Assembly: GCA_963555825.3 (NCBI GenBank) | Contig: CAUVXB020000001.1 | Location: 62,610-126,609 of the forward strand | DNA: 64,000 nt | DNA from: Alphaproteobacteria bacterium | GTDB taxonomy: Bacteria; Pseudomonadota; Alphaproteobacteria; JAAXGF01 | Reading direction: 5' to 3' | Shown: positions 7,926 through 61,317 of the stretch, piece after piece | Layout: every line of letters starts with the position of its first letter | How positions within the stretch are numbered: the first letter of the stretch is position 1 | Position numbers and translations under genes: made by a program | Notes under the pieces: model-generated | Database searches by the model: none | Told to the model about the DNA's origin: nothing | What the model saw: the letters and a program-made list of their open reading frames with translations, nothing else

Positions 7926-8078
7926 TTAACCGACATTCCCCAGATGATATCCAAATTCGCGGAAATCGTACCACGGCCCCAACTCCAAGGGAACTCTGTT
8001 CCCATTGCAGCCATCCGATGACATGATTTTGGTAATCGGCCAGCGCGTGGAAGGCCATTTGGTCGTTTCTCTTGCCAT
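7926..8078 (-). CDS. Possible 50-aa ORF in the IS1380 3' tail, reading out through the terminal repeat
   Basis: MARETTKWPSTRWPITKIMSSDGCNGNRVPLELGPWYDFREFGYHLGNVG. The stop codon is supplied by the flanking TTAA. The same frame is conserved in the partial copies at 14444-14593 and about 59160-59300. It could instead be conserved non-coding end sequence. Confidence 0.3.
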   Translation of the reverse strand: MARETTKWPSTRWPITKIMSSDGCNGNRVPLELGPWYDFREFGYHLGNVG

Positions 8079-14189: not shown

Positions 14190-14592
14190 CTTGCGGCACT
14201 GGAGCATTGGTCGCTGACGACTCTGCGGGCTTGAGCGGCAAAGCCGATCAAGGGTGGTCAAGATTGGTGCCAAGGTCGTCAGACACGGGCGATACGTCAC
14301 GTTCCAATTGGCCGAGGTTGCCGTGCCGAGGGAACTGTTCCGGAGAAACCTGAGCCCGATTGATGATCTACGACGAAGACCCATTCCGGCGTAGGCCGAG
14401 GAAATCGACGGCCAGGTGAAAACGACGGGAGGGGTGTGTCTGAATGGCGGAAAATCTGGGCAAATGGCCTTCCAAACGAGGACCGATCTCCAAAATCGGG
14501 CCCTCGGATGGCTGCGGAAGCGATGCCGTTCCCTTGGCGGTGGAACGGTGGTACGAATTCCACGGTTTTGGATGGCGTCTGGGGAATGTCGG
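14190..14592 (+). mobile_element. 3'-terminal fragment of a second IS1380-like element (transposase C-terminus remnant, tail and terminal repeat)
   Basis: ...LEHWSLTTLR...VVRHGRYVTFQLAEVAVPRELF...IDDLRRRPIPA, with frame breaks, aligns to the end of the 8128..9486 transposase. The tail and end GGGGAATGTCGG (14581-14592) match copy 1. It starts right after the lhgO stop. Confidence 0.8.
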
Positions 14593-14989
14593 TCAATACT
14601 GCTTAGGATTAACTGACGTGGTGCGGCGCGTTCGGTCGTCGAGTGACGATACGCCACCAAGGAGGGCGGACGCAGAAGTGGCGGAGGCGCTTGTCAGTCG
14701 GCCCGACCGGCTGGCGACCGGCAAGGATGGTGTCGACGATTTAGGGGGCCAGCAAAGCGAGTTGGATCCTGTGCCTAGCGTCCCTGGCGGCAAGCCCGCC
14801 GAAGCGTGCGATCTCGCGGATGAGGACAGGGCGAAAAATTTTCTTCAGAACAAACGCAATTGGGTAGAATAAGACCACTTGAGAGCATCCGGCTTGACGA
14901 CCTATGGCCGCACTTATTCATGTTGCGCGAGTCTGAGGCGCGCCGGGAGCGCTAGTTGCGACACCATCTTGCATCCCGAGTAGTCCCCC

Positions 14990-17638: not shown

Positions 17639-17681
17639 CCGCGCGTCCACTGTTCGACTCTGAATATGCCGGCCAGTGTAC

Positions 17682-17915
17682 GTAAGCAGCTCGCAGAATC
17701 AACGTCGCGAACCAACGGAATTTACATAAATAACATAAGCAGTTTACATTTTAAGGTGACGGTGATGGTTCACGGCTAAAAGTAAGCAGTTACTTTGTTG
17801 CACGCTATGGGTCAGGGGCGTGGTGCCTTGCGCGTCTTCAACTGCTCATTGCCTCGCTCGTGCTCATGCTTAAACCGCGACCGCCGACGACTCGGAAGAA
17901 TTGTAAACTGCTTAC
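17682..17915. repeat. Four copies of a GTAAGCAG(T/C)T(T)ACA-like motif (three direct, one inverted) in an A/T-rich intergenic region
   Basis: gtaagcagc at 17682-17690, ataagcagtttacatt at 17735-17750, gtaagcagttacttt at 17782-17796, and tgtaaactgcttac at 17902-17915 (the reverse complement of gtaagcagtttaca). Confidence 0.6.
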
Positions 17916-20174: not shown

Positions 20175-20515
20175 TGATCCGGCCGCACCGCAACCATCCG
20201 CTCTGGTTCGCCTTCGCGCTGCACCGGCTGTCGGGCGTCTGTCTGGCGCTGTTCCTGCCGGCGCACTTTTACGTGCTCGGCCTGGCGCTGACCGAGCCCG
20301 CCGCGCTCGACGGCTTCTTGCAGTGGACCGACGCACCGCTGGTCAAGGCGGCCGAAATGGGGCTGGTCGGCCTGCTTGCGGTCCATCTGTTCGGCGGCCT
20401 GCGCCTGCTCGCCCTGGAATTCCTGCCGTGGCGCGACTGGCAGAAGAGCGCCGCGGCGACCGCCGCCGCCGTCTCGCTGTTCGTCGCCGGCGGCTTCCTG
20501 TTCAATGCGGTTTAG
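20174..20515 (+). CDS. Membrane-anchor/cytochrome b-type subunit (SdhC/FrdC-like)
   Basis: 113 aa. The HRLSGVCLALFLPAHF motif is typical of SdhC-like subunits. TGATG start overlap. Confidence 0.65.
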   Translation: MIRPHRNHPLWFAFALHRLSGVCLALFLPAHFYVLGLALTEPAALDGFLQWTDAPLVKAAEMGLVGLLAVHLFGGLRLLALEFLPWRDWQKSAAATAAAVSLFVAGGFLFNAV

Positions 20516-21049
20516 CCCGGACTTCTCACCATGGACAGGTGCGGCACGGCAGATATCGGACGACAAGCTAGGAAAGGCGTGTAGCGCGATGCCAGTACTC
20601 CCTTGCACGATTCCACGGCACGTAGGATCGCGTTTCCCGTTTCCTCGGCAGTCGGGGGCGTGACGGCGATGCCTTGGCATCGCAGAGCGTTCCCGACGCC
20701 CCGAGGGGGCGGGAAACGCGACCTGCAGGGCGGCCTTGCGCGGCCGCCGGCGGCGTTGCCCGGCGCTTGCGATGCGCCCAGCATCACGGCGCGCCGGGCG
20801 CCTTGCCGGACGACCGCGCAAGGCCGTCCTACGTACCGTGGAATCGTGCAAGTGAGTACTCGCGCATCGGGCAAGCGCATTGACGCCGCCTGTCGTCCGA
20901 GATCCGCCGCCCTTAAGGGTCGCGCCGGGCGGGGCGGGCGCGGCGTCGAAGACCTTGACCGTGGCCCAGGCCACGCTCGGCGGCCTTCTCCTGGCGGATC
21001 GGCTCCGCCCGACGCGATGACGCGCCTGTCCATGGTGAGAAATCCGGGC
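20515..21049. mobile_element. 535-bp palindromic MITE-like element flanked by TA
   Basis: 25-bp terminal inverted repeats: GCCCGGACTTCTCACCATGGACAGG (20515-) versus the reverse complement of 21025-21049 (24/25). Nested internal inverted repeats, for example cttgcacgattccacggcacgtagga near 20600 and its complement near 20830. TA lies at 20513-14 and 21050-51. Confidence 0.8.
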
Positions 21050-21055
21050 TAGCCG

Positions 21056-26226: not shown

Positions 26227-28262
26227 ACGACGAGGCGTTCGCGGCGCGGCGTATCGCCGGCGCCGAATGCGCGCGCGTATTTGTGGCCGGCATAAACCGC
26301 GGCGGCGATCGACGACGGCGCGGCGCAGTCGCCGATGCGTTCGAGCGTCTTGACGCCCGCTGCCTCCAAACGTGCCGGATCGGCGGCGAGCGCGCTGTAC
26401 AGCCCTTCGCTCGGCTCGCGCGAGGTGACCACCACCAGCGTATCCGCGGTGATCGTCGAGGGGCGCTCAGAGAACGCGCAGGAAAGGGTACAGGACGCGC
26501 CGTCGAAGCCGGTGACCAGCTGCGAGACGACGATCTCGACCTCGAGTTCGATCATGCGCGCCTGGATGCGCGGCTGGTCGAGCGTGTACTCGCAGTGCGG
26601 CGAGACGACGCCGGCGCTGGTCACCAGCGTCACCGAGCGGCCCACGGCACGCAGCTTTTCGGCGATCACCGGCGCGATGTAGAAGTTGTCGTCGTCGTAG
26701 ACCACGACGTGGCCCTCGGCCGCCGCGCCCGCCATGACGTCGCTGGGCGACAATACGCGCTCGTGTTCCCAGCCCTCGATCGGCGTGAAGCTCGATCGGC
26801 CGATGCCGTTCCTGCGCCACGCCGCGCCGGTCGCGATGCAGACGTGCGGGAAGCCGAACTCGAGCACCTGCTCGGCCGAGAGTTCGCTGTCGCGGTAGAT
26901 TTCGACGTTGGGCATCTTGCCGATCTGATAGACGCGGTAGTCGCGCACCCGGCCCCATTCGCCCAAGCCCGGCAGCTTGCTCTCGGCGTCGACGCGGCCA
27001 CCGAGCTCGGTGGTCGCCTCGGCCAAGGTGACCGAAACGCCGCGTTCGCCCAGGGCGCGCGCTGCCTCGAGCCCGGCGGGCCCGGCGCCGACGATCAGGA
27101 CGCCGTCGTCCGACGTCTTGGGCGGGATGATCTCGGGGTGCCAGCCGCGCCGCCACTCCTCGCCCATGGTCGGGTTCTGCGTGCAGCGGATCGGCACGCC
27201 CAAGCCGTCGCCGACGATGCACATGTTGCAGCCGATGCATTCGCGGATGTCGTCCGCGCGGCCCTCCTCGATCTTCCGGGGTAGGAACGGATCGGCGATC
27301 GACGGGCGCGCCGCGCCGATCAAGTCGAGGACGCCGCGTTTGATCTGGCCGACCATGGTGTCGGGCGAGGTGAAGCGTCCGACGCCGACGACCGGCTTGG
27401 TGGTCACCTGCTTGACGAAGGAGATGAAGGATTCCTGCGCCGCCTCGGGCGCGAAGCGCGAGGTCCGCGCGTCGGCCGCAAAATGCGCGATGTTGACGTC
27501 CCACAGGTCGGGCAGTTCGGCGAGCATCTCGACGATCTCGCGGCCCTCGCCGTCGAAACGGATACCGAGGTCGGCGTCGAGGCCGTCGACGGCGAAGCGG
27601 ATGACCACGCCGCAGCGGTCGCCGACCGCGTCCTTGGTCTCCTCCAAAAGCTCGCGTGTCAGACGCACGCGGTTCTCGAGCGAGCCGCCGTATTCGTCGG
27701 TGCGCTGGTTCTGCACCGGCGAGAGGAACTGGTGCGGCAAGTAGCCGTGCGCCGCATAGACGTAAACCAGGTCGAAGTCGGCCTGCTTGGCGCGGATCGC
27801 CGCGTCGCGGTGCCAGCGGCGCAGTTCGCGGATGTCGGTCTTGTCCATCGCCCGGGTCTGGCCCGACCTGTGCCAGGTCGGCATGCTGGTCGCGGCGACG
27901 CCGGCCTCGCGCGTCAGGTCGTTGGACGACGAGAAGCCGCCGTACCACAGTTCGCAGTCGGCGAGCGCGCAGTGGCGATGCACCGCCTCGGTCATCGCCG
28001 CGTGGTTCTTGACGTCGTCGTCGTCCCACAGGGTGCAGTAAGGGGCGGGCGCATCGTCCGACGACGGGTGGATCGAGCAATACTCGGTACACACGACGCC
28101 CCAGCCGCCCTCGGCCTTGACCTCGCGTATGCGGTTGAGCGTCGCGGGCATGTCCGATCCCATGCCCGAGCAGTGCGGCACCTGATAGAATCGGTTGGGC
28201 GCCGTCACCGGGCCGATCTTGACCGGTTCGAAGAGAATGTCGTAACGCGGATCGCGGGCCAT
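26223..28262 (-). CDS. Iron-sulfur flavoprotein of the trimethylamine/dimethylamine/histamine dehydrogenase family (OYE-like FMN domain, 4Fe-4S and ADP-binding domain)
   Basis: MARDPRYDILFEPVKIGPVTAPNRFYQVPHCSGMG matches the TMADH N-terminus, including the Cys used for 6-S-cysteinyl-FMN. Also CIGCNMCI...C and VLIVGAGPAGLEAA. Confidence 0.8.
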   Translation of the reverse strand: MARDPRYDILFEPVKIGPVTAPNRFYQVPHCSGMGSDMPATLNRIREVKAEGGWGVVCTEYCSIHPSSDDAPAPYCTLWDDDDVKNHAAMTEAVHRHCALADCELWYGGFSSSNDLTREAGVAATSMPTWHRSGQTRAMDKTDIRELRRWHRDAAIRAKQADFDLVYVYAAHGYLPHQFLSPVQNQRTDEYGGSLENRVRLTRELLEETKDAVGDRCGVVIRFAVDGLDADLGIRFDGEGREIVEMLAELPDLWDVNIAHFAADARTSRFAPEAAQESFISFVKQVTTKPVVGVGRFTSPDTMVGQIKRGVLDLIGAARPSIADPFLPRKIEEGRADDIRECIGCNMCIVGDGLGVPIRCTQNPTMGEEWRRGWHPEIIPPKTSDDGVLIVGAGPAGLEAARALGERGVSVTLAEATTELGGRVDAESKLPGLGEWGRVRDYRVYQIGKMPNVEIYRDSELSAEQVLEFGFPHVCIATGAAWRRNGIGRSSFTPIEGWEHERVLSPSDVMAGAAAEGHVVVYDDDNFYIAPVIAEKLRAVGRSVTLVTSAGVVSPHCEYTLDQPRIQARMIELEVEIVVSQLVTGFDGASCTLSCAFSERPSTITADTLVVVTSREPSEGLYSALAADPARLEAAGVKTLERIGDCAAPSSIAAAVYAGHKYARAFGAGDTPRRERLVV

Positions 28263-28415
28263 GGCCGTCCCCCTAAGCATGTCGTGTCGTTCTCGTCGCT
28301 CAGCCTGCCACGGCGGAAGGGCCGCGCGCATCAGAAGATTTGCCACAAGGATGGACGGGCCTGGGCTTGCCGCTTATAGCTGGACGATGCTCGGCACCCT
28401 CGCACGGACGTGTCC

Positions 28416-38846: not shown

Positions 38847-38853
38847 GCGGCTA

Positions 38854-38879
38854 GCCCGGATTTCTCGCCATGGACAGGC
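38854..38879. repeat. Solo copy of the MITE terminal repeat, flanked by TA
   Basis: gcccggatttctcgccatggacaggc matches the 20515 element terminus (one mismatch in the shared 25 bp). TA at 38852-53 and 38880-81. Confidence 0.7.
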
Positions 38880-39682
38880 TACTCGCCGCGCCACACCGGC
38901 GCGCGTTTTTCGATGAAGGCGTCGACGCCCTCGCCGGCATCGCGGGCGAGCATGTTGCGGGTCATCGTCTCGGACGCGTAATCGTAAGCCTCGGCGACGT
39001 CGAGCTCGAGCTGGTCGTAGAAGGCGCGCTTGCCCATGGCCATGGTGTAGGACGACTTGCTGGCGATCTTGGCGGCGAGCTCGGCCACCGCGGCATCCAG
39101 CTCCTCGGCCGGCACGGCGCGGTTGATCAGGCCCATACGCGCCGCGCTCGCGGCGTCGATCGCGTCGCCCGTCAGCAGCAACTCGAGCGCATGCTTGCGC
39201 CCGACGTTGCGCGCCAGCGCGACCATCGGCGTCGTACAGAACAGCCCGATGTTGACCCCCGGTGTGGCGAACTGCGAACGATCCGAGGCGATCGCCAGGT
39301 CGCAGGTGGCGACGAGCTGCAGTCCGGCGGCGCTGGCGACGCCGTCGACCTTGGCGATCACCGGCTGCGGCAACCCGGTGAGGCACTTCATCATGTGGCT
39401 ACAGGTGTCGAATACCCGCTGGAAGAATGCCGCGTCGTGATTCGCGCGCAGCTCCTTCAGGTCGTGCCCGGCGCAGAACCCTGGCGCGCTTGCCGCAACG
39501 ACCACGACGCGCACGGCGCGGTCCTCGGCGATCGCGTCGAGTTCGCCCTGGAGCAGGCCCGTCAACTCGGTCGACAGGCTATTGCGCGCCGCGGGACGGT
39601 TGAGCGTCAGCGTCGCGACGCCGGCATCGTCGCTGCGCAGCATGATCGCGTCATCGGTCGCGGTATTGGCAAGGGCGCTCAT
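38879..39682 (-). CDS. Enoyl-CoA hydratase/isomerase family protein
   Basis: VATLTLNRPAARNSL..., FCAGHDLKE, AKVDGVASAAGLQLV. Confidence 0.85.
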   Translation of the reverse strand: MSALANTATDDAIMLRSDDAGVATLTLNRPAARNSLSTELTGLLQGELDAIAEDRAVRVVVVAASAPGFCAGHDLKELRANHDAAFFQRVFDTCSHMMKCLTGLPQPVIAKVDGVASAAGLQLVATCDLAIASDRSQFATPGVNIGLFCTTPMVALARNVGRKHALELLLTGDAIDAASAARMGLINRAVPAEELDAAVAELAAKIASKSSYTMAMGKRAFYDQLELDVAEAYDYASETMTRNMLARDAGEGVDAFIEKRAPVWRGE

Positions 39683-44523: not shown

Positions 44524-46611
44524 TAACCGACTGCCCAGGGGAACGGCGGCTCGAACGACGCGGGCACCTGCTCGATACGGAACGGCTGGTCGGCGACGTC
44601 CGGCCCGTCGAGCGCGCGGGCGGCTTCGTGGCCACCGAACACCGCCTCCGATAGCAGTGCCGGCGCCAGGCAATCGCCGACCGCCCTGACCGATTTGATG
44701 CCGGCCTTCGCATTCGCGTCCTCGTCGCCGACGAGGTCGTGGTAGAGCGTTTCGTTGGGACTGCGCATGGTGACCAGGATGACGCTCGAGGCATTCAGGA
44801 AACGGGCCGGTTCACCGTAGACTCCAGTCACCTCGACCTCGCTCTCGGAGATCGCCGCGAGATTGTGGTTGGCGAGAACGGCGACGCCCGACGCGACCAG
44901 CCGCCGCTGGATCTCTGCCAGGTCCAGGGTGTAGAGCGTCCAGGGCGAGACCTGGGCGAGTGGCGTGACGATGGTGACGTCATGGCCTTCGCCGGCCAGC
45001 TTCTCGGCCAGGCAGCCGCCCATGACATAGGTATCGTCATCGAAGATCACGACCGGCGAACGGACCTCGGCGCCGGCCATGACATCGTCGGGTGTCAGCA
45101 CGTGGTCCTGGGCATGGCCCTGGACCGGACGGAAATTATGCGCACCGACTCCGTCGCGCCGCCAGTGAGCGCCGGTCGCGACGATGACGTGCTCGAAGCC
45201 GAACTCGCGCACGTGATCGACGGTCAGCTCGCTTTCGCGGTAGACCGTGACGTTCGGCATCTTGTTGATTTGGCCGACGCGCCAGTCGCGCACTCTGATC
45301 CATTCGGCGAGGCCGGGTAGGCGTGCAACGGCGATCAGGTGGCCGCCCAGCTCGCGCCCGGCTTCGGCCAGAGCGACCTCGTAGCCGCGTTGGCCGGCCG
45401 CGCGCGCCGCCTCGAGACCCGCCGGGCCGCTGCCGACGACCAGCACCCTGTCGCCGGAGCCCTTCTCGGGCACCGTCTCGGGGTGCCAGCCGCGGCGCCA
45501 TTCCTCGGTCATCGTCGGGTTCTGAGTGCAGCGGATCGGCACGGTCAGCGAATTCGAGGCGAGGCAGATGTTGCAGCCGATGCATTCGCGGATGTCCTCG
45601 GGTCGCCCTTCCTCGATCTTGCGCGGCAGGAACGGGTCGGCGATCGAGGGCCGCGCCGCGCCGATCAGGTCCAGCACGCCGCGCTTGATCATCGAGACCA
45701 TCGTGTCCGGGCTGGTGAAGCGACCGACCCCGACGACCGGCTTCGTGGTAAGCGACTTGACGAAGGCGATGCCGGGCTCTTCCCAGCCCTCCTTACGAAA
45801 GCGCGAGCCCAGCATGTCGTCGAAGCCGCCGACGTTGACGTCCCAGAGATCGGGCATCTCGGCCAGCATCTCGACCACGGCGCGGCCGTCTTCGGCGGTG
45901 ATCGCATCGGGGCCGTATTGCTCGTCGACACAAAACCGGATCGCCACGGCGCAGGCGCCGTCGGCCTCCTCGCGGGTTTCCTCCAACACCTCGCGGAGCA
46001 GGCGGGCGCGGTTTTCGATGCTGCCACCATATTCGTCGCTGCGCTGGTTGATGCGCGGCGACAGGAAGTCGGTGAACACGGTCAGGCTATGGCCGACGTA
46101 GACATAGACGATGTCGAAGCCGGCCTCGACGGCGCGCCGCACGCCGCGACGATGCCAACGGCGCAAGGCGCGAATGTCGCTCTTGTCCATGGCGCGGCCC
46201 TGCGCCGGAAAGTCGCGCGGCTGCATGGGTCGCGGCGACGGTCCCATGGTCGGAATGCGCGTGTACGTGTTGTGGCCATACAGGCCGGCGTGCGCCAGCT
46301 CACAGCCGGCCAGCGCGCCGTGGCGATGTACCGCCTCGGTCATCAGCGCGTTGGTGCGCACGTCCTCGTCGGTCCACAGGCGCGCCGAGGCGGTCGGCGT
46401 CGTGTCGGCCGAGGGGTGGGACCGTGCACCACTCGGTGCACACCACGGCCCAGCCGCCTTCGGCCTTGATGCCGCGCATGGCCGCCTGGGTATGCGGATA
46501 CCGGTAGCCCGAGCCGTTGCAGTGGGGCACCTGGTAGAAGCGGTTCCTCGCCGTGACGGGACCGATCTTGACCGGTTCGAAGAGAATGTCGAAACGCGGA
46601 TCCCTGGTCAT
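44523..46611 (-). pseudogene. Second TMADH-family iron-sulfur flavoprotein (paralog of 26223..28262) with a +1 frame disruption near 46417-46420
   Basis: ATG 46611 follows GGGAGAAGG. MTRDPRFDILFEPVKIGPVTARNRFYQVPHCNGSG...GGWAVVCTEWCTV, then the frame is lost in a C-run. Removing one C restores HPSADTTPTASARLWTDEDVRTNALMTEAVHRH, which joins ORF 44523..46361. Confidence 0.8.
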
Positions 46612-46747
46612 TGCCTTCTCCCTTCCCGGTCGTGCGCGCGCCTGTGACGGGTCGTGGGCACGATGATGGCGGTTGCGCCGCGAGCGTAGCACAGCATCGC
46701 TCTGAACTGTGACGACGGTCACAGTCTGGCCCTAAAATCGTCGATTT

Positions 46748-51466: not shown

Positions 51467-51808
51467 TCACGCCATCGCCGGGTTGCAGCCGTACGGTTCG
51501 AACGCGATTTTATGGAGGCCGAGCAGGTCCCTGACCTCGGCGCGCCGGTCGTAGACGTCGGGGTTCAGCCGGACGTGAACATGCGTCGCGCCGCGCTGCT
51601 GAATCATGTAGAACTTGTAATTGTCGGCGTCGACATGCTTGCCCAGATCACCCTCGCCGACGAAGATGGGAACCCAGCGCCGGCTGCTGTCGAGGCGGGC
51701 GAATACAAAGTTTCCCTTCTGATTGGATTCGAACGAAATCGGCAGTTCGTAGACCTGGTAGGTATAGGTCTTTCTCGACGTTCCGATCCAATTGCTCGTC
51801 ATTGCCAT
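51467..51808 (-). CDS. Small hypothetical protein, possibly GIY-YIG-like
   Basis: GNFVFA-(10 aa)-IFVGEG spacing resembles GIY...YIG. It lies in an A/T-richer islet next to the MITE. Confidence 0.4.
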   Translation of the reverse strand: MAMTSNWIGTSRKTYTYQVYELPISFESNQKGNFVFARLDSSRRWVPIFVGEGDLGKHVDADNYKFYMIQQRGATHVHVRLNPDVYDRRAEVRDLLGLHKIAFEPYGCNPAMA

Positions 51809-52000
51809 GGCGTATCCTTCATCCGACCGTGTGGCCCCGCGTCCCCAATCCTCGATTCTTGGTCCTTATCGATTGCCGTCGCTATTTGAGTACCATTCGA
51901 GTGGGCCCGCCACAATCCGAGGAGATTCCCAATATAGTGTAGGGAAATCCCTAGATATCCGCGCGTTTCAGAGCCTTTTCGGCTGCATTCCGGCGTCCAA

Positions 52001-52838: not shown

Positions 52839-54275
52839 ATGAGCGCCACGACGAAAATAGAAAACGCGTCCTGGGTCATCGCCTGGGACGGCGCGGCCGA
52901 AAGCCACGTCTACCTGCGCGACGCCGACGTGGTGTTCACCGGCGCCGACATCGATTTCGTCGGCACGGGCTACGGCGGTACGGCCGACACCGTGATCGAC
53001 GGTGCCGGCCTGATGGTCATGCCCGGCCTGGTCGACATCCACGCGCACCCGGGCGACGAGCCCAAGAGCAAGGGCCTGTTCGAGGAGATGGGCAGCCCGA
53101 TGCTGCACAACACCTCGCTGATCGAATACATGCCGCTGGTGCGCGGCGACCTCGATGGCGCAAACGCGGCGCTCGAATTCGCGCTTTGCGAGCTGCTCAA
53201 GAGCGGCTGCACGACGCTCTGCGACCTATCGGGCGTGCGTGAGGGCTGGCTCGACACGCTGGCCCGAAGCGGCATCCGCGGCTACGCGGCGCCGATGTTC
53301 CGTTCGGCCCGCTGGTATACGCCGAACGGCCATGAGCTCTGCTACGAGTGGGACGAGGACGCCGGCAAGCGGGCCTTCGCCGCGGCGCTCGAGGTGGTCG
53401 ATGAGGCCGAGGCGCATGACTGCGGCCGGCTCAAGGGCATGATCTCGCCGGCCCAGATCGACACCTGCACCGCCGATCTCCTGAAGGACAGCGCGGCGGC
53501 CGCCAAGGAGCGCAGCATGCCGTGGACCGTGCACGCCTCGCAAAGCGTCGTCGAGTTCCGCGAGATGGTGCGGCGCCACGGCCAGACGCCGGTCGAATGG
53601 CTCGACGGATTGGGCCTCCTCGGCCCCGACAAGATCATCGCCCACGCGATCTTCGTCGACCACCATCCGTGGCTCGGCTGGCCGACCATGGACGACCTCG
53701 ACCGGCTCGGCGGCGCCGGCGCCAACATCGCGCACTGTCCGAGCAACTTCGTGCGCCGCGGCATCTTGCTTCAGGACTTCCGCGCCTATCGCGAGGCCGG
53801 CGTCACCATCGGGCTCGGCACCGATACCTTCCCGCACAACATGATCGATGAGATGCGCTGGGCGGTGACGCTGGCCAAGGTCGCGGCGGCCGACGTCCAC
53901 GCGATCGGCGCCGGCGACGTACTCGACGCAGCGACGGTCGGTGGCGCACGGGCGCTTGGGCGCGACGACATCGGCCGGCTCAGCGCCGGCGCCAAGGCCG
54001 ACATCGTGCTGGTCGATCTGGCGCATCCGTCGATGCTGCCGGTGCGCGACCCGCTGCGCAGCCTGATGTTCTCGGCGCTCGAGCGGCCGGTGCGCGACGT
54101 CTACGTCGACGGCGCGTTGGTCGTCAAGGACGGCGATTGCCTGACGCTGGACCACGCCGCCGCCGGCGCGCGCCTGCAAGCGGCGCAGGCCCGCGCGCTG
54201 GCCGGCGTCGCCGAGCGCGATTGGGCGGGCCGCTCGGCCAACGAGGCCTTCCCGCTGTCGCTGCCGGTGCGCTGA
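52839..54275 (+). CDS. Amidohydrolase (chlorohydrolase/deaminase TRZ/ATZ-type)
   Basis: PGLVDIHAHPG, ...HASQS..., GLGTDTFPHNM. It is a paralog of the disrupted gene at 1209..2713. Confidence 0.8.
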   Translation: MSATTKIENASWVIAWDGAAESHVYLRDADVVFTGADIDFVGTGYGGTADTVIDGAGLMVMPGLVDIHAHPGDEPKSKGLFEEMGSPMLHNTSLIEYMPLVRGDLDGANAALEFALCELLKSGCTTLCDLSGVREGWLDTLARSGIRGYAAPMFRSARWYTPNGHELCYEWDEDAGKRAFAAALEVVDEAEAHDCGRLKGMISPAQIDTCTADLLKDSAAAAKERSMPWTVHASQSVVEFREMVRRHGQTPVEWLDGLGLLGPDKIIAHAIFVDHHPWLGWPTMDDLDRLGGAGANIAHCPSNFVRRGILLQDFRAYREAGVTIGLGTDTFPHNMIDEMRWAVTLAKVAAADVHAIGAGDVLDAATVGGARALGRDDIGRLSAGAKADIVLVDLAHPSMLPVRDPLRSLMFSALERPVRDVYVDGALVVKDGDCLTLDHAAAGARLQAAQARALAGVAERDWAGRSANEAFPLSLPVR

Positions 54276-54489
54276 GGGTGGCCCGGGTCCAATCGACATT
54301 CAGTAATCGCGGGCCGTCTGTCGCCGACCCCGATAGAGAGCCGAAATCGGTCTTTAAAGGAGGGCCAGACCCTTTTTTAAACCATTGATTTTAAGCCATT
54401 TTAAAGGGGTCTGTATTTTAAACCGGATTTGATCTGCGGCGGCTCGATGAAGCGCCGCGAGCAGGGCTAATCGACAGGATCCCCCCACA

Positions 54490-54939
54490 CTATTGTTTGG
54501 ACTCGAGGGCAAAATCCAGCCCGCGCGTCTTGCCCCACCACACTTTACCCAAATACAGCCCGGGCTCGACTTCTCTGATCTCGTCTCGAACCTTCTTGGC
54601 AAAGAACGAGGTCGTGGAGTAATCGATGACGATGGTGTCTTTGCCGTCCATCCAGCTCGCATCCCGATAGACCTTGGCCACGATGAAGGTGAGGCTGAAA
54701 TAGGTGATCTTGTTGACGAGCACACCTGCGTCGGCGTCCGGCGCGAAAATGTCGAACACCTTACCTTGCCAAGCCAACAACCTCGTCAATGCGGCCACGC
54801 TCTTCGAGAACAAGGAGCCGGCCAGAATCGCCGTGCCTCGAGTATCGCCGTTGGGTAGCTCGCCGGCGGACGCATTCTTGTAGATATCGTCGAGCTCCTC
54901 TCGGGACATCTGCAGCCATTTCTTGATCCGGTCGTCCAT
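54490..54939 (-). CDS. Small hypothetical protein (weak resemblance to GXWXG/DUF4334-type proteins), third gene of the haem operon
   Basis: ATG follows GGGAGG, with a 41-bp gap to the upstream gene. LAWQGKVF and VYRDASWMDGKDTIVIDY...LYLGKVWW. No signal peptide. Confidence 0.5.
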   Translation of the reverse strand: MDDRIKKWLQMSREELDDIYKNASAGELPNGDTRGTAILAGSLFSKSVAALTRLLAWQGKVFDIFAPDADAGVLVNKITYFSLTFIVAKVYRDASWMDGKDTIVIDYSTTSFFAKKVRDEIREVEPGLYLGKVWWGKTRGLDFALESKQ

Positions 54940-54980
54940 TGCAAAACCTCCCTATTTCTCGAGTTAGGCTATGTCCTTGA

Positions 54981-56066
54981 TTACAGTTGGGAGTTCTGTT
55001 GCGCGCGAAACTCCGCTATCTCGTCGTACAACTCCTTGCGAACACGATTCATCCCACCAAGCGGTTTGTGAGCGCTGAGTGCGTTCCATGGATTGAAGCT
55101 CATTGCCTCGCACTCGGCCATCGAGTTTGCGCCTTGAAATTCCTGATCCTCCACGACGATCGTTGCTACCGTGGTAAATGGCGAAATGTCCTCGTCCCAG
55201 ATCACCGATGCGTCCTCGATCGGCATGACTTCGGCATCGCTTTGAAACTGCACCATGAACGCGAAGCAAGCCGGTGCCCGTTGCAGATGGTTGGCCATGG
55301 CGCTGCTCAAATGACCCGCATCGGGCTCATCGGGTTGGTCGGTGGTTACGGTCGAGCACGACCTGAGCGAGTACTTCACTGCAGAGGTCGAATCGTCGCC
55401 GTATCGGTAGGGTGTGGTGCTCCAATACCGAATATCGAAAGGGCTCGCCGGCGTGTCTCGTGCTTTGAACAGGATCCACAGAGACTTGGGGTGACTGAGA
55501 AAATACAGCCACCGCCGGTCGTCCGCGGTTGCCTCGATGAAGCTCAGAAAGTCCTCCGGCGTGGCGGCGAACAAAGCCGGATAGCTGTTGAACAGAAAGT
55601 CCTGAGCCAGGGTCTCGCCGCCAGTGAGATCCGCATCGGTGATTTCGGGGATCTTCACCGAGAGTCCGCGAAGATCCTTCTCGCGATCGTCCTCCGTGCT
55701 GGCATTAGCAATTCGCAGGATGGCGGGATAGGTGGCAGGTTTCGAAAACAAGCCACGAGCGAGCTTCTCCGGCAGGGCGTCGGCCACCGTGAATGCCGCG
55801 TCGAAGCACCCCAGGCTTTTCGCTTGGTTGAAACGCTTTACGAGACCGTCGTTTTTCAGCCGCTCGAGACTCACCTCCTTGATCAGCCGGATCATCTCGC
55901 GAGTCACTTCCGCCTCGTCCGGCTGTACGTACTCTTCTCCCAGACCCAGGTCGGGGCTGTCGCCGCAGCTCGCCACAAACAGCGTCAGTGCCAGCGCAAA
56001 CGTTGAGCGCTGCAATCGGTGCAATAGTGTTGCGGGTGCAGCGCTGTATCGCTTCCGTGACGTCAT
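54981..56066 (-). CDS. Catalase-fold (catalase-related) haem lipoprotein
   Basis: I place the start at ATG 56066, so the gene does not overlap the upstream one. Lipobox LFVASC. RFNQAKSLGCF aligns to the catalase RVVHAKGAGAF. The proximal-ligand motif is NRVRKELYDEI (Tyr codon 55026-55028). Confidence 0.7.
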   Translation of the reverse strand: MTSRKRYSAAPATLLHRLQRSTFALALTLFVASCGDSPDLGLGEEYVQPDEAEVTREMIRLIKEVSLERLKNDGLVKRFNQAKSLGCFDAAFTVADALPEKLARGLFSKPATYPAILRIANASTEDDREKDLRGLSVKIPEITDADLTGGETLAQDFLFNSYPALFAATPEDFLSFIEATADDRRWLYFLSHPKSLWILFKARDTPASPFDIRYWSTTPYRYGDDSTSAVKYSLRSCSTVTTDQPDEPDAGHLSSAMANHLQRAPACFAFMVQFQSDAEVMPIEDASVIWDEDISPFTTVATIVVEDQEFQGANSMAECEAMSFNPWNALSAHKPLGGMNRVRKELYDEIAEFRAQQNSQL

Positions 56067-56115
56067 TTTGTCTAGGTGGGTCACCGGGCTCACTGCTGTA
56101 TGGCTTGATCCGTCC

Positions 56116-58977
56116 TCATTGCACGTCCGCGAATGCGGGATCGGCCTCCGCGCCCTTGCGGGCGACCCACTGGAGCGAGTAATACTCACTGCGGTCACGT
56201 GCCCAGGGATCGAAGACGTTGATGACGGTCTCGAGCTCGTCCTCCAGCTCCGGGATGACGCGGAGCAGGATCCGTTTCAGGGGTGACACCTCCTGCTCGT
56301 GGCCGTTCGGTTCACCGTTCTCCATGACCGTGCCGTCGGGGCCGTTGTCGTTCACCCAGGCGAGGCCAAACGTGGAGTAGAACTCCGGCCGGAAGCTCGA
56401 GGTGTAAAAGCGGTCGCTGAACAATCGACGCGACGCGTTCAAGATGAATACCTGGAACTGGGTTTCCGAAATCGCATAGCCGTGGGGCCGCGTCGTTTCG
56501 GCGAGCCAACCGACCACCGTGTCCAGGTCCTCGATGTTGTCGACCTCGCTACCGTCCCGGTGCCCCAGGCAGTCGTTGATCGGCTCACCGTCGTCGTCGA
56601 CCTGCGCCGCCGTGATGATGACCTTAGCGTTGCACTTGTGGGTGCCGTAGACCTCGCGCAGCAGCTTCACGAGATTCCTTTGATCGGCAAGCTCATTTTT
56701 CTCGGCGTCCGTGAGCGAACCTTCGCGCTTCCGCAGGCGCTCGTCGATGAAGTCGTCGAAGCTGGTCAGCGACTTCAGCCCGTATTGCCGGCGGAACTCG
56801 TTGAAGCGGGGAACGCCGCGTTCACGGTCCCGGAGGATGTCGAGCGCCACCACGTCCAGCTTCTCCGTGCCAATGCCTTTCAGGCGCTTCGGCATCTTCA
56901 GATTCTGCAGAAACTGCGGGTGATTCTGCAGCGCCAGCTGCCCCAGCCGCTGGCGCCCGAGACTGAGCCCCCAGTTGGCCATGCCGCCAGCGTGCATCGC
57001 TTCCGTCGCGTCGCCGCGGAACGTTTTGACGACGGGATCCTTGCGCGTGATGACGTTAGGATCGTTGCCCAAATCCCGGTACTCGATCAGATCGGGCAGC
57101 AGGGCGTGCAAGCGGTAGACGGTGATGAACTCCTCGGGGAAGTTGAACGGCGAGCCGAAGTGGTTCACGCCGCCGTTCACGTCGTCCGGAACCGTCAGGT
57201 CCCAGCCTTTCTTGGTGCTGCCCGTGCCGATGATTCCCGGCCCGGAGGCAAACACTGAGTACCATGAAGTCGCCTTGGACCCCTTTTCGGACATGCCGAG
57301 TTTGTCGACGACTCTGGCGAGCGCCTTCTCGATCAGTGGATGACCCTTGACCAAGCCGTACCAGTTGGAATTCATGGCGGCATAGAGCGGTTCGTCGTAC
57401 AGCAGCTGCGGGGTCCATTCGATGGTGTGAATCTTGGCGATTTCCGCCGCCACGACGAGCCGCGCGATCTCGAACAGCTCGTCGGCGCTCACTTCCTTAT
57501 ATCTGATGACCTTGTCGGCGTTGTCCGGATCGCGGAGCCCGGAATCGTCGTTTGGCGTCTGCGCCGCCTGGCTCCGGAACGCGTCGACGAAGGCGTTGTG
57601 CTCGCGGACGAACAGGTTGTGAAAGAAGCTCAATCCAATCGTCCAGTTGTCCGGAAACGCGGTGGCTTCCTGGCCGACCCACTCGGGATTGATGTAACAA
57701 TCGGCGGGATCACCTTGACAGCTTTCGAACGTCGGAAGGTAACCGAACCTGTCCCCTCCGTTGGTCCGTCCGTCGACCGGCACCATCAAAAGCTTGGCGG
57801 GGTCCCCCGGATCCCGCCTGACGCGGCGGCGGGACCGTTCGTCATAGCCGTAGATCTGCGACGCGTCCCACCACGCCGTGACATAGTTTCGCGTGGTCTT
57901 GTGCGCCCGGGAAAGATACGTCTTGCCATTGTGCTCGAAGGTCTCCGGTTCGGTTTCATCGGCGAAGAGCGCCGGATCCATTCGATCGCCCGGGCGGCAT
58001 CCGAGATCCGCGGTGGGGCACCCAACTTTCATCGGCTCCTTGTCAGTATCATTGCGGCCCTCGCTCAGATGTGAGAACCAGTCATGGTTCATGAACTGGA
58101 TCCAGAAGGCGGCCAGCACGTTGAAGAAGGGCGCTTTCTTGTAATCGCAGTTGGCATCCGTGAAATTGCCCTTCAGCCCCATGCCCTCGTTGCACTTTTC
58201 GAGATTATCCTGCACCCGGGTGAACAGCTTGCGGCTGATCACCTGCGGGTCCGGCTTCAACAGGTCGATGCGGTCTCCGTGTCGATTCTTGGTCAACTCG
58301 TCGTAGCCTAGCCGCGGGAACGTCTCCTCGAACTGGACATTCCTGGCGAAGACCTGGCCGGTGGAGCCCATGGCCGGGTTCTTCATGTCATTGCAAATCC
58401 CGGTGAGGGTCCGATGGCGGATGAGCGGGCCTTCGCAGGTTTGCGCGCCGTCATCGTCGACGCCCAGGTCGGCGTATTCGGGATGATCCTTCGGCAGGCG
58501 CATCTCCGGCCACGTCTTCACCGTCTGCCCGTCGACACCGTCGCGTCCCGTGACGTAATCCTTGAACGTATAGTTGTCGAATAGATTAAACTTGATGAGC
58601 TCGATCCGCTCGTACTCGAGATCCATCAGCGCGCCATCGATGCCGAATCCGTCTTTCAGGAAGTGCCGTAAGAAGCCGGTGAAGGCCAACCACTCGCCCG
58701 ATTTCGAGTCGTCGTCGGCCGCGGCCCAGTAGTTTGCCCAATCGACCCACGGGGTGCTCCGGAACGCGACGGCCTTGTCGTCGCCCCGGCATCTCGCCGT
58801 GTCTTCCTGCACCTTACCCAGGAAGCGATGCTCTCTGGTTTTCGCGATGGGCCGGAATCCCCCCCACACCATGCTGGTACACGCGACATAATCATACCCG
58901 GCCACGTTCGAGATACCGACGTAAAGCCCCAGAGCCACCACGATCGCCAACACGGCCAACGATGCTTTCCTAACCAT
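56116..58977 (-). CDS. Animal-haem-peroxidase-superfamily protein of the alpha-dioxygenase/cyclooxygenase-like branch, membrane anchored
   Basis: N-terminal hydrophobic anchor. RTLTGICND, WIQFMNHDW (His codon 58084-86), DASQIYG, FHNLFVREHN, IHTIEWT, VYRLHALLPD (Tyr 57115-17, His 57106-08). Confidence 0.8.
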   Translation of the reverse strand: MVRKASLAVLAIVVALGLYVGISNVAGYDYVACTSMVWGGFRPIAKTREHRFLGKVQEDTARCRGDDKAVAFRSTPWVDWANYWAAADDDSKSGEWLAFTGFLRHFLKDGFGIDGALMDLEYERIELIKFNLFDNYTFKDYVTGRDGVDGQTVKTWPEMRLPKDHPEYADLGVDDDGAQTCEGPLIRHRTLTGICNDMKNPAMGSTGQVFARNVQFEETFPRLGYDELTKNRHGDRIDLLKPDPQVISRKLFTRVQDNLEKCNEGMGLKGNFTDANCDYKKAPFFNVLAAFWIQFMNHDWFSHLSEGRNDTDKEPMKVGCPTADLGCRPGDRMDPALFADETEPETFEHNGKTYLSRAHKTTRNYVTAWWDASQIYGYDERSRRRVRRDPGDPAKLLMVPVDGRTNGGDRFGYLPTFESCQGDPADCYINPEWVGQEATAFPDNWTIGLSFFHNLFVREHNAFVDAFRSQAAQTPNDDSGLRDPDNADKVIRYKEVSADELFEIARLVVAAEIAKIHTIEWTPQLLYDEPLYAAMNSNWYGLVKGHPLIEKALARVVDKLGMSEKGSKATSWYSVFASGPGIIGTGSTKKGWDLTVPDDVNGGVNHFGSPFNFPEEFITVYRLHALLPDLIEYRDLGNDPNVITRKDPVVKTFRGDATEAMHAGGMANWGLSLGRQRLGQLALQNHPQFLQNLKMPKRLKGIGTEKLDVVALDILRDRERGVPRFNEFRRQYGLKSLTSFDDFIDERLRKREGSLTDAEKNELADQRNLVKLLREVYGTHKCNAKVIITAAQVDDDGEPINDCLGHRDGSEVDNIEDLDTVVGWLAETTRPHGYAISETQFQVFILNASRRLFSDRFYTSSFRPEFYSTFGLAWVNDNGPDGTVMENGEPNGHEQEVSPLKRILLRVIPELEDELETVINVFDPWARDRSEYYSLQWVARKGAEADPAFADVQ

Positions 58978-59157
58978 CGGACGTCCCTTCCCGATTGTCT
59001 TTTGCAGCGGCTCTTTTCACCCTTGTCTGTATGGCCTGGTGACGCGACGGGCGACGGATACGCCGGATCGGCCCATCCAGTTGTGCGCGTGCGATCCCGA
59101 AAACCTACTTTATGCAATTTTAAAGAGAAGACATCAAATTTTTTTCATGTCTTATGA

Positions 59158-59335
59158 CTGACATTTCCCAGATAACCTCCAATTCCGTGGCAATCATACG
59201 AAGATTGCACCACCATTCGAGTTGTTTTTCCTCCGCAACCATCCGATCGCTTGATTTTGGTGGTTTGGCCGTATTCGGAAGCCCATTCGGCCAAATTGTT
59301 CGTCTCCCAGATACGCCTCTTCCGGCAAGGAGTAC
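59158..59335 (-). mobile_element. Orphan 3' end (about 175 bp) of a third IS1380-like element
   Basis: ctgacatttcccagataacctccaattccgtgg...ccatccgatcgcttgattttggtgg...ggaagcccattcgg aligns with 7930-8100 and with the reverse complement of 14420-14592. No transposase gene is attached. Confidence 0.7.
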
Positions 59336-59339
59336 CTGG

Positions 59340-59476
59340 AAGGGCAGGTTTTCACGACCGTCGCAACCGACGATGTCGAAGCCGTCCTTCCCGAAGGCGA
59401 AGCGGGCTTCGCCGCCGCAGACATGACAACGCGTCGGGGCGGGATGAACGCTCTCGTCGCCCGACGTTCGCGTCAT
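59340..59476 (-). pseudogene. Short 5' gene fragment (Cys-x2-Cys N-terminus), truncated at the IS1380 remnant
   Basis: MTRTSGDESVHPAPTRCHVCGGEARFAFGKDGFDIVGCDG... then runs into IS-derived sequence. Confidence 0.25.
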
Positions 59477-59520
59477 CCTCGGCGGCGTCGCCCGGCGGCC
59501 GGAGGGTCCGCAGGGACGCC

Positions 59521-61317
59521 CTACTCGGCGCGCACCTTGGCGTAGGTGCCGGGCGCGTCCTCGATCGGCGTCAGCTTGCCCTCGCCCGGCGTGCGCGCCG
59601 CGATCTTCTTGCCCGAGCGTTTGGCGTTCCAGCGCTTCCAGTCGGGCCACCACGAGCCGGGATGTTCGGTCGCGCCGGCCAGCCAGGCGTCGGGCGTTGT
59701 GGCGATCTCGTCGCTCGTCCAATGGCCGTATTTGTTGGCCGCCGGCGGATTGATCACGCCGGCGATATGGCCCGATGCGGCCAGTGTGAAGCGCACTGGC
59801 CCGCCGTAGAGCTGGGTCCCGGCATAGGTCGATTTCCACGGCGCGATATGGTCGTCGCGTGTCGACAGGAGATAGGCCGGTGTCGCGACCTTGCGCAGAT
59901 CGATTGGCACGCCGGCGAGCGAGATGCCGCCCGGCTTCGAGAGCAGGTTCTCTTGGTACATCTTGCGCAGATAGAAACTGTGCATCGCGGCCGGCATGCG
60001 CGTCGTGTCGGCGTTCCAGTACAACAGGTCGAAGGGGAAGGTATCCTTGCCCATCAAGTAGTTGTGGACCACGAACGACCAGATCAGGTCGTTCGAGCGC
60101 AGCATGTTGAAAGACGTCGCCATCGCCGAGCCGTCGAGAAAACCATCGCGGTCCATGCGTTCCTCGAGCGAGGCGATCTGTTCCTCGTCGATGAACACCT
60201 CGAGCTCGCCGACCTCGGCGAAGTCGACCAGGGTGACGAAGAAGGTCGCCGCCTTGATGCGGTCGTCACCGGTCTCGGCCATGTAGGCGAGCGTCGCGGC
60301 GAGCAGCGTGCCGCCCAGGCAATAGCCGATCGCCGTGACGTCGCGCTCGCCGGTCGCCTGCTCGATGGCGTCGAGCGCGGCGAGCGGGCCCTCGGCCATG
60401 TAGTCCTCGAACGTCTTGTGCGCGAGCTTTGCATCGGGGTTGACCCAGGAGACGACGAACACGGTGAAGCCCTGATCGGTCGCCCATTTGATGAACGAGT
60501 TCTTCGGCTGCAGATCGAGGATATAGAACTTGTTGATCCACGGCGGCATGATCAGGAGGGGCCGTTTGTAGACGGTCTTCGTGGTCGGCTCGTATTGCAA
60601 GAGCTGCATCAGCTCGGTCTGGAAAACGACCTTGCCCGGCGTCGCGGCGACGTTCCTGCCGAGCTCGAAGGCATCGAGGTCGGTCATGCTGATGCGCAGC
60701 TTGCCCTTGCCGCGCTCGAGATCGCCCAGCAGGTTGTTCAGGCCGCGCACGAGGTTTTCACCCTTGCTCTCGATGGTCGCCTTCAGCACCTCCGGATTGG
60801 TCATGACGAAGTTGCTTGGCGCCATCGCATCGACGAACTGGCGGGTGTAGAAATCGATTTTCTTGGCGGTCTTATCGTCGAGACCCGCGACGTCGTTGAC
60901 GGTCGACTGCATCCAGCGCGCGGTCAACAGATACGACTGCTTGATGAAATCGAAGACTTGATTCTCGCTCCAATCGTCGTGTTTGAAACGGCGGTCGCCG
61001 CGCTCCGGCGCGATGACGGGATCGCTCTCGCGACCCATCATGCGTTCCGCCGTGTGCTGCCACAGCGACATGTAGTCCTGCCACAGCGACATCTGCGCTT
61101 GCATCATCTTCGCCGGGTCGGCCATCATCTTGGCGGTCAAATCGAGAAACGCCTTGCCGATGTTGAGTGGGTCGGCCATGCCGAATTGACCGTCCGCGCC
61201 CTGCCGCTCGAGGAATTCGCTCAGTATGCGTTGGCTGCGCGCCGCGATCTCGGCCATGTCGCCCGAGGTGTCGGTGGCGCCGTCCGCGGGCGGCTCGTGC
61301 GGCTGCTGATCGGCCAT
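59521..61317 (-). CDS. phaC: Class I poly(3-hydroxyalkanoate) synthase
   Basis: RRFKHDDW, PLLIMPPWINKFYILDL, lipase box GYCLGG, and DDHIAPW. ATG at 61317. Confidence 0.9.
   Translation of the reverse strand: MADQQPHEPPADGATDTSGDMAEIAARSQRILSEFLERQGADGQFGMADPLNIGKAFLDLTAKMMADPAKMMQAQMSLWQDYMSLWQHTAERMMGRESDPVIAPERGDRRFKHDDWSENQVFDFIKQSYLLTARWMQSTVNDVAGLDDKTAKKIDFYTRQFVDAMAPSNFVMTNPEVLKATIESKGENLVRGLNNLLGDLERGKGKLRISMTDLDAFELGRNVAATPGKVVFQTELMQLLQYEPTTKTVYKRPLLIMPPWINKFYILDLQPKNSFIKWATDQGFTVFVVSWVNPDAKLAHKTFEDYMAEGPLAALDAIEQATGERDVTAIGYCLGGTLLAATLAYMAETGDDRIKAATFFVTLVDFAEVGELEVFIDEEQIASLEERMDRDGFLDGSAMATSFNMLRSNDLIWSFVVHNYLMGKDTFPFDLLYWNADTTRMPAAMHSFYLRKMYQENLLSKPGGISLAGVPIDLRKVATPAYLLSTRDDHIAPWKSTYAGTQLYGGPVRFTLAASGHIAGVINPPAANKYGHWTSDEIATTPDAWLAGATEHPGSWWPDWKRWNAKRSGKKIAARTPGEGKLTPIEDAPGTYAKVRAE

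Follow-up and report, generated by a model that had tools for sequence, protein, structure and literature searches.

Three co-directional genes on the minus strand of an alphaproteobacterial contig (CAUVXB020000001.1) encode an exported alpha-dioxygenase-type haem protein (g1), a catalase-fold haem lipoprotein (g2), and a small cytoplasmic protein predicted to form a barrel (g3). They lie at positions 54490-58977 of the window, by which the whole analyzed stretch of 64,000 nucleotides is meant. The three open reading frames (ORFs) given for this segment by an earlier annotation made from the DNA letters (the original prediction) are all real and intact, and with over 1,300 homologues for each of the proteins they are not chance ORFs. 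With slightly better than even confidence, the trio is explained as an envelope module of two enzymes that oxygenates fatty acids, accompanied by a cytoplasmic barrel protein of the lipid-binding type. The folds, catalytic residues, export signals, and gene linkage on which this explanation builds can be read from the sequences and structures.

Profile scores place g1 among the alpha-dioxygenases of the animal-haem-peroxidase superfamily. The protein matched the An_peroxidase model (PF03098) with an E-value of 1e-63 and 216 bits at a cut-off of 25, and as a single sequence its only strong solved relatives were the alpha-dioxygenases (alpha-DOX) of rice and Arabidopsis (E 1e-55 to 1e-50). Closeness to alpha-DOX was judged by the E-values of a family profile, which was built from 18 homologues of several phyla and scored against the PDB. 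This profile reached the rice and Arabidopsis enzymes with a best E of 1.5e-70, down to 1e-65, compared to about 1e-6 for myeloperoxidase and lactoperoxidase (MPO/LPO) and 5.6e-4 for cyclooxygenase-1 (COX-1). The preference agrees with the original prediction, which had placed g1 on the fatty-acid dioxygenase side of PF03098, and all g1 motifs quoted there were found in the sequence.

As far as the alignment indicates, g1 has the full rice alpha-DOX set of five catalytic and carboxylate-binding residues (Table 1). H298, H517, Y621, H624, and R850/R851 were invariant across the 18 aligned homologues, and homologues with these invariant residues occurred in Gamma- and Deltaproteobacteria, Nitrospirales, Bacteroidota, and Acidobacteriota. 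The alignment register at Tyr621 is fixed because the Y379F mutant of the rice enzyme (4KVL) has Phe in exactly this column, so that the Tyr-x-x-His arrangement proposed earlier for g1 matches Y379/H382 of rice alpha-DOX. His311 and Arg559 of the rice enzyme are said to bind the fatty-acid carboxylate, in work attributed to Koszelak-Rosenblum 2008. Directly before the distal His, g1 has Asn (F-M-N-H-D-W) and alpha-DOX has Val (F-M-V-H-D-W). True peroxidases of the MPO/LPO type have an Asp in this place (D-H-D) that forms a covalent haem ester, whereas g1 has N-H-D.

The N-terminus of g1 has a mean Kyte-Doolittle hydropathy of 2.7 over 15 aa. A hydrophobic N-terminus was found in 102 of 119 homologues and a lipobox in 86 of 119, while the g1 of the window, which has no lipobox Cys, would be periplasmic, either cleaved or anchored. 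Ten invariant Cys make up five conserved pairs. Known alpha-DOXs have only the catalytic domain, of about 620 aa, and no signal peptide; the longer g1 adds the signal, a conserved N-terminal domain of 190 aa, several inserts, and the five Cys pairs. The g1 of the window shared 55-61% identity with its counterparts in Gamma-, Beta-, and Deltaproteobacteria. The activity predicted for g1 is that of an O2-dependent fatty-acid alpha-dioxygenase, which would yield 2-hydroperoxy fatty acids.

In a near-identical metagenomic strain (L001/L002:5106-7969), g1 is called as two ORFs of 496 and 458 aa. Either a true frameshift or a fault in the assembly would account for the split; the copy in the window is intact.

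The second gene is predicted to encode a lipid-anchored haem protein of the catalase fold. The g2 of the window missed the Pfam catalase model PF00199, which many of its homologues, annotated as “catalase family protein”, do match. Scored against the PDB, the g2 family profile matched the coral allene oxide synthase (cAOS) with an E-value of 1.6e-8, MAP-2744c with 4.9e-7, and catalases from 3.5e-6 on. The AlphaFold2 (AF2) model had a predicted local distance difference test (pLDDT) score of 92, and its top matches in Foldseek were MAP-2744c (3e4y, 8e-17) and cAOS (1u5u, 2.6e-16), ahead of the large catalases. In total, 184 PDB chains matched the model at E<=0.001, and among the 50 listed all were catalases or catalase-related.

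The family profile puts KRFNQAKS of g2 on ERVVHAKG of catalase, which confirms the replacement of the distal His by Gln that had been aligned by eye. R78, N80, Q81, the distal N160, R343, and Y347 were invariant in an alignment of 33 diverse homologues, and the previously noted lipobox and proximal R-x3-Y correspond to Cys34 and R343-x3-Y347. The core fold, the proximal Tyr and Arg, and Asn160 are shared with monofunctional catalases, while the distal His is missing. Because an invariant Asn80-Gln81 stands in for the acid-base His, g2 cannot, on this alignment, be a catalase. Profile alignment, the 33-sequence alignment, and Foldseek agree with the earlier reading as a catalase fold without distal His. 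The residues that define cAOS are R64, R102, R360, T66, H67, N137, and Y353 (PMC5617202). Their equivalents in g2 are kept as R78, R118, R354, N160, and Y347, while the Thr-His pair is replaced by Asn80-Gln81; g2 does not have the distal Thr-His of cAOS and hydroperoxide lyase but does adjoin a dioxygenase gene.

A lipobox was present in 78 of 119 g2 homologues. Cys 87, 237, 267, and 319 were also invariant in the 33-sequence alignment, a set that fits an extracytoplasmic protein. Signal peptides, the lipobox in most homologues, and the conserved Cys thus uphold the targeting of both g1 and g2 to the envelope, as had been proposed. The g2 of the window was 44-60% identical to gamma-, beta-, and deltaproteobacterial copies.

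The third protein, g3, is the most conserved of the trio: it has 1,469 homologues, and the window protein is 68-79% identical to its counterparts in Gamma-, Beta-, and Deltaproteobacteria. It is taken as cytoplasmic because a lipobox occurred in 0 of 119 homologues and the N-terminus of the window protein is hydrophilic. The original prediction had headed the operon as exported, which for g3 does not hold as no signal peptide was found. Searches of Pfam, NCBIfam, PHROGs, PADLOC, and PDB sequences gave no match for g3, and 43 members of its family gave no consistent Pfam family; the only match of the g3 profile among PDB sequences, NTF2, was at chance level and was rejected. No named NCBIfam family matched g1 or g2 either. 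PADLOC and PHROGs, used to look for defence-system and phage families, matched none of the three proteins, and a defence role of the trio was set aside on this ground.

The AF2 model of g3 (pLDDT 79.7, only 55-67 over residues 41-90) consists of two N-terminal helices and an antiparallel sheet of 8-9 strands. Its sole significant Foldseek match was 4mve, an uncharacterised structural-genomics protein (E 2e-4) with a template modelling (TM) score of 0.60, while matches to FABP, CRABP, bile-acid- and retinoid-binding proteins, and lipocalins were weak (TM 0.4-0.5, E >= ~0.07). With moderate confidence, the model indicates a calycin-like barrel. Invariant or near-invariant polar residues include W57, G59, K60, N76, S95, D98, D106, Y107, and R118-D-E-I-R122, and their conservation suggests more than a passive pocket.

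Fusions of the g3 domain in a 50%-identity library (P0405, P0439, P0430, P0476) join it to cytochrome P450, to a RoxA-like dihaem cytochrome c, or to an acetoacetate-decarboxylase-like (ADC-like) domain, and two of these three partner types are haem oxygenases. A distant g3 relative (P0388, ~41% identity, L085:6001-6435) is encoded on a phage-like contig of small ORFs (RNaseH_like, DUF4031) and had no PHROGs match. The gene neighbourhoods of distant g3 relatives were uninformative or unrelated.

The arrangement of the genes in other genomes was followed from g3. A genome scan gave 160 loci at species level; 80 of them were retained, and one locus found via g2 brought the set to 81 (L003-L083), in which the order of orthologues was mapped by tblastn. 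In 57 of the 81 loci, the gene immediately upstream of g3 is an orthologue of g2, and in 53 of these 57 g1 comes immediately before g2, with three cut by contig ends and one exception (L004). The adjacency of g1 and g2 was thereby found in 53 of 54 loci with readable upstream DNA. Downstream, g3 is directly followed by three further genes, X, Y, and Z, in 72 of the 79 loci with readable downstream DNA. The usual unit is g1-g2-g3-X-Y-Z, and all six genes stand in line in 39 of the 81 loci (e.g., L016:6036-14536). The linkage of the trio that had been predicted therefore recurs in dozens of loci, but the trio is no unit by itself: it makes up the leading three genes of a common cluster of six. 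X, Y, and Z occur nowhere in the 64 kb of the window.

X (about 432 aa) has a central hydrophobic segment and is called membrane-associated; it had no Pfam or PDB relative even by profile and no detectable relation to Y. Y (about 510 aa) has weak matches to DyP peroxidases, and its motifs “FGFVDG” (GXXDG-type) and “HIRRSNPR” are taken by us to be DyP-type. Z (about 400 aa) is a paralogue of g2 at 28% identity, on which its catalase nature rests, and alone it had no significant match in the PDB. An Asn occupies the distal-His column of Z, and the distal Asn is gone as well. X, Y, and Z all lack a signal peptide. Judged by gene order and export signals, the system divides into an exported pair and a set in the cytoplasm, and g3 stands where these two modules meet.

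Several variants of this arrangement were observed. In Nitrosomonas, g3-X-Y-Z occurs alone or with g1 a few kb upstream, while g1-g2-g3 occurs alone in Kangiellaceae (L043) and in the window. One locus has g1-g2 without g3 (L088:7025-11104), and in another (L089:1-3557) g1-g2 is followed by a g3 stub of 30 aa and then by an OYE-type flavin oxidoreductase. The latter locus holds the closest relative of the g2 of the window, at 89% identity, yet its g1 is only 61% identical, which suggests recombination between g1 and g2. The cluster occurs in at least 160 species, including Nitrosomonas europaea, methanotrophs, and sulfur-oxidising symbionts. No description of the six-gene cluster or of g3 was found in the literature covered, which was incomplete, so that this is absence of evidence only; a literature search for the N. 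europaea locus tags NE1239-NE1245 found nothing relevant.

Genes of lipid enzymes adjoin the related loci and back the link to lipids made in the original prediction. In N. europaea ATCC 25978, g1 is preceded at a distance of 56 bp by a co-directional lipoxygenase gene (PF00305, E 9e-58), and a lipoxygenase stands directly upstream of g1 in four Nitrosomonas and Nitrosospira loci, N. europaea included (L028:197-1894). A patatin-like phospholipase directly follows Z in 8 loci, one of them alphaproteobacterial, and a Tle1-like phospholipase directly follows Z in 7 methanotroph loci. Enzymes of these kinds set fatty acids free or oxygenate them. In the Sedimenticola locus L016, cydAB (cytochrome bd oxidase) was found at 15082-17823 after the six-gene cluster, and a gene for a TIR-domain protein (3908-4813) about 1.2 kb upstream of g1.

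In the proposed mechanism, a free fatty acid would be bound by g1 either in the periplasm or on the periplasmic side of the inner membrane. Its carboxylate would be held by His517 and Arg851, and the geometry of alpha-DOX would place C2 beside the Tyr. The peroxide-primed radical of Tyr621 would abstract a hydrogen from the fatty acid, probably at C2, and addition of O2 would give a fatty-acid hydroperoxide. g2, tethered to the membrane in the same compartment, would then bind the hydroperoxide at its haem and convert it by reduction, lyase-type cleavage, or rearrangement. As it has no acid-base His, g2 could not run the catalase or cAOS mechanism as known. One possibility is that its amide side chains steer the O-O cleavage, comparable to CYP74 enzymes, which have an active-site Asn in hydroperoxide cleavage. 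g3, without a signal peptide, would bind the hydrophobic substrate or product on the cytoplasmic side. Both the alpha-oxidation and the fate of the hydroperoxide are inferred here from sequence.

Several points weigh against this mechanism. The functions of all three families are predictions from their sequences. With its 190-aa domain and inserts, g1 is 330 residues longer than alpha-DOX, so it may act on something other than a simple free fatty acid, and g2, which does not have the distal His used by cAOS, the coral hydroperoxide lyase (cHPL), and MAP-2744c, may handle hydroperoxides differently. Strict anaerobes (Syntrophus gentianae, Desulfobulbales) also have the cluster, which is awkward for an O2-dependent biosynthesis. 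Unlike g1 and g2, g3 is cytoplasmic, and close relatives do without it. Haem b would have to reach the Sec-exported g1 and g2, and in the window no lipase or lipoxygenase was found near the trio.

The occurrence in strict anaerobes and microaerophiles, where scavenging of O2 or peroxide would fit, also bears on the view that the system protects or repairs the envelope against peroxidised lipids, or scavenges O2, and is not biosynthetic. Here, g1 would be mainly a peroxidase or O2-consuming scavenger for oxidised lipids of the envelope and g2 an organic-hydroperoxide peroxidase, while the cytoplasmic DyP-like and catalase-like proteins of the six-gene form would finish the detoxification. The top structural neighbour of g2, MAP-2744c, is reportedly an organic-peroxide-dependent peroxidase, cytochrome bd oxidase genes adjoin the cluster in Sedimenticola, and the full cluster holds four peroxide-handling haem folds. 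Such a role is nevertheless rather unlikely in our judgement, as g1 keeps the alpha-DOX-specific Tyr-x-x-His and the carboxylate-binding residues without the haem-ester Asp, g2 and Z do not have the distal His needed for efficient formation of compound I, and the neighbouring lipoxygenase and phospholipases generate lipid hydroperoxides and do not remove them. A substrate other than a fatty acid, be it a different carboxylate or a molecule that is secreted or belongs to the envelope (a lipopeptide, the acyl chain of a lipoprotein, an aromatic acid, or a protein Tyr cross-link), would agree with the unique conserved N-terminal domain and the large inserts of g1 that are absent from alpha-DOX, with X and g3 having no characterised relatives, and with the distant g3 relatives in unrelated contexts and fused to the ADC-like domain. 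The His and Arg that anchor the carboxylate in alpha-DOX and the channel-lining motifs are, however, conserved in g1, lipid enzymes are genomic neighbours elsewhere, and the g3 fold weakly resembles fatty-acid- and retinoid-binding barrels, which together render this substrate range improbable.

That the trio is an inactive remnant, left by a six-gene cluster after the loss of X-Y-Z, appears highly improbable. The absence of X, Y, and Z from the window could be read this way, as X is wanting after g3 in only 7 of 79 informative loci, g3 is cut to a 30-aa stub in a close relative, and g1 is called as two ORFs in the near-identical metagenomic assembly. Yet the window has three full-length ORFs with every invariant catalytic residue intact and a strong ribosome-binding site before g3, g1 is kept in 14 cluster members at >=90% identity, and both the trio without X-Y-Z (Kangiellaceae L043) and g1-g2 alone (L088) recur. 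The proposed fatty-acid-oxygenating envelope module may also be part of something wider. As a tentative extension that we regard as possible and still doubtful, the trio could be the visible part of an undescribed bacterial oxylipin system that reaches from the envelope into the cytoplasm and occurs in several phyla, in which catalase folds with an amide in place of the otherwise universal distal His (Gln in g2, Asn in Z) form a new catalytic class of O-O bond chemistry. In it g3, of about 150 residues and better conserved than the enzymes, would be a new lipid-handling hub or enzyme linking the periplasmic dioxygenase pair with the cytoplasmic DyP-like and catalase-like pair.

Known alpha-DOXs are, to our knowledge, not paired with a catalase-like gene, and their 2-hydroperoxide product decays spontaneously. 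The enzymes of rice (4KVJ/4KVK) and Arabidopsis (4HHR/4HHS), together with CalDOX and LepDOX (PMC8720084), are the best relatives of g1, in which their key residues are conserved. Proteobacterial alpha-DOX-like sequences had been seen only as leaves of a tree (PMC8720084).

The pairing of a haem dioxygenase with a mini-catalase, presented as new in the original prediction, has a precedent. In Nostoc punctiforme, a COX-like linoleate 10S-dioxygenase acts together with a catalase-related 10S-hydroperoxide lyase that is encoded beside it (Brash et al. 2014, J Biol Chem 289:13101, as given in PMC9579011 and PMC13049297). The logic proposed here is the same, as the gene of a superfamily haem dioxygenase adjoins that of a small catalase-fold protein which consumes its hydroperoxide. 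The Nostoc pair was set apart from the trio by its published description only: its dioxygenase is COX-like, with ~31% identity to COX, while g1 is alpha-DOX-like. The trio further differs by the export of g1 and g2 as lipoprotein-type proteins, by the distal Gln of g2, and by the added g3 and, usually, X, Y, and Z.

MAP-2744c (3E4W/3E4Y), a 33-kDa catalase-related protein from Mycobacterium avium ssp. paratuberculosis, ranks first among the structural neighbours of the g2 model, with TM scores of 0.64-0.75 at 21-22% identity, but it is cytoplasmic and no dioxygenase partner is described for it. It is said to be a bacterial mini-catalase without catalase activity and presumably retains the distal His. 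The oleate-diol synthase pair of P. aeruginosa, PA2077/PA2078, is reportedly periplasmic and acts on exogenous fatty acid. It likewise consists of adjacent haem-enzyme genes, a fatty-acid dioxygenase followed by a hydroperoxide converter (PMC4496055). The family is unrelated, with the fold of dihaem cytochrome c peroxidases and CXXCH haems, while a g3-type domain is fused to RoxA-like dihaem proteins elsewhere. Coral cAOS and hydroperoxide lyase, fused to an 8R-lipoxygenase (1U5U, 3DY5; PMC5617202), share with g2 the mini-catalase fold, a fatty-acid dioxygenase partner, and equivalents of the haem residues Arg64, Arg102, and Arg360, the distal Asn137, and the proximal Tyr353. Besides Asn80-Gln81 in place of Thr66-His67, g2 differs by an identity of only ~17%, by being encoded as a separate lipoprotein gene and not as a fusion, and by its partner, which is a haem dioxygenase and not a lipoxygenase. 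Overall, the sequences set the system apart from known pairs by the alpha-DOX type, export, the invariant Gln, and the embedding in six genes.

Characterised bacterial oxylipin enzymes are few and comprise lipoxygenases, the dihaem diol synthase of P. aeruginosa, and the 10S-DOX/lyase pair of Nostoc. The interest lies less in the trio than in a widespread and uncharacterised multi-haem cluster. Should g1 prove to be an alpha-dioxygenase, no exported enzyme of this kind and none with its own partner for processing the hydroperoxide would have been known before, and turnover of hydroperoxides by g2 and Z in spite of the missing distal His would widen the repertoire of the catalase fold. Oxidation of fatty acids in the envelope could bear on membrane remodelling, signalling, and O2 tolerance in nitrifiers, methanotrophs, and anaerobes. 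Alpha-DOXs are wanted as biocatalysts for fatty aldehydes (PMC8720084, PMC9305512).

Table 1. Coordinates of the trio, its key residues, and flanking sites; positions refer to the window unless a locus is named.
Feature	Position	Strand	Description
g1	56116..58977	minus	953 aa; exported alpha-dioxygenase-type haem protein, peroxidase-cyclooxygenase superfamily
g1 signal peptide/anchor	58897..58977	minus	residues 1-27; MVRK and hydrophobic core, no lipobox Cys
g1 distal His298	58084..58086	minus	in WIQFMNHDW; aligned to distal His of rice alpha-DOX
g1 His517		minus	in AKIHTIEWT; aligned to His311 of rice alpha-DOX
g1 Tyr621-Arg-Leu-His624	57106..57117	minus	VYRLHALLP; radical-forming Tyr and proximal His, rice Tyr379/His382
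g1 Arg851		minus	in NASRRL; aligned to Arg559 of rice alpha-DOX
g2	54981..56066	minus	361 aa from first ATG; catalase-fold (“mini-catalase”) haem lipoprotein
g2 lipobox V31-A-S-C34	55965..55976	minus	read from sequence; fits [LVI][ASTVI][GAS]C
g2 R78-F-N80-Q81	55824..55835	minus	haem-propionate Arg; Asn-Gln where cAOS has Thr66-His67 and catalase Val-His
g3	54490..54939	minus	149 aa; cytoplasmic, predicted beta-barrel (calycin/FABP-like), central to the wider cluster
Palindromic hairpin with T/A runs	54353..54381		between convergent g3 and amidohydrolase genes; terminator-like site
543-bp spacer	58978..59520		phaC (PHA synthase) stop to g1 start; spacing identical in near-identical strain
Lipid-enzyme neighbour, further example	L011:8427-10172
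Lipid-enzyme neighbour, further example	L064:12837-14405

With the starts used, that is, g2 from its ATG, the three genes are separated by the gaps of 49 and 41 bp reported earlier. The ORF of g2 can be extended to a GTG at 56198, and a product of 367 aa is called in other assemblies. A ribosome-binding site, GGGAGG, precedes g3. Downstream of g3 and convergent with it lies an amidohydrolase gene, of which the ORF reading agrees with the previously given stop at 54275. The hairpin between these two genes is likely a bidirectional terminator, given its sequence, and the spacer upstream of g1 is the presumed promoter region, although no sigma-70 consensus site was found within its 543 bp. No Rfam RNA elements were found in 54000-59600.

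The block that had been described as richer in A/T has a GC content of 0.592 (54276-59520) compared to 0.655 in the rest of the window. GC at third codon positions (GC3) was 0.82 in g1, 0.70 in g2, and 0.78 in g3, and 0.88-0.91 in the flanking genes. The composition of the block is distinct, though not extreme. The trio was probably acquired horizontally, because its GC and GC3 are below those of the flanking genes. An “orphan IS1380 end” at 59158, which was thought to bound the block, had to be dropped: the window contains no other copy of the sequence, the 543-bp spacer was unmatched among 72,556 plasmids, a transposase ORF is absent nearby, and the near-identical strain has a spacer of equal length.

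Repeated segments were also observed elsewhere in the window. The segments 26984-28274 and 45329-46623 are 73-83% identical over ~1.3 kb at a distance of 18.3 kb and are probably paralogous genes. Segments 7926-8303 and 14200-14596, ~6 kb apart, are inverted and 79-90% complementary, and could be oppositely oriented duplicated genes or the arms of a composite element. A 33-nt inverted repeat (51158-51190/51389-51421, 94% complementary, 198 nt between the arms) sits just upstream of a dip in GC to 0.566 at 51500-51999. A short palindromic element, TAGCCCGGA..TCTCACCATGGACAGG, occurs in both orientations at 20513-20546, 21013-21055, and 38848-38890 and is possibly a REP- or MITE-like repeat.

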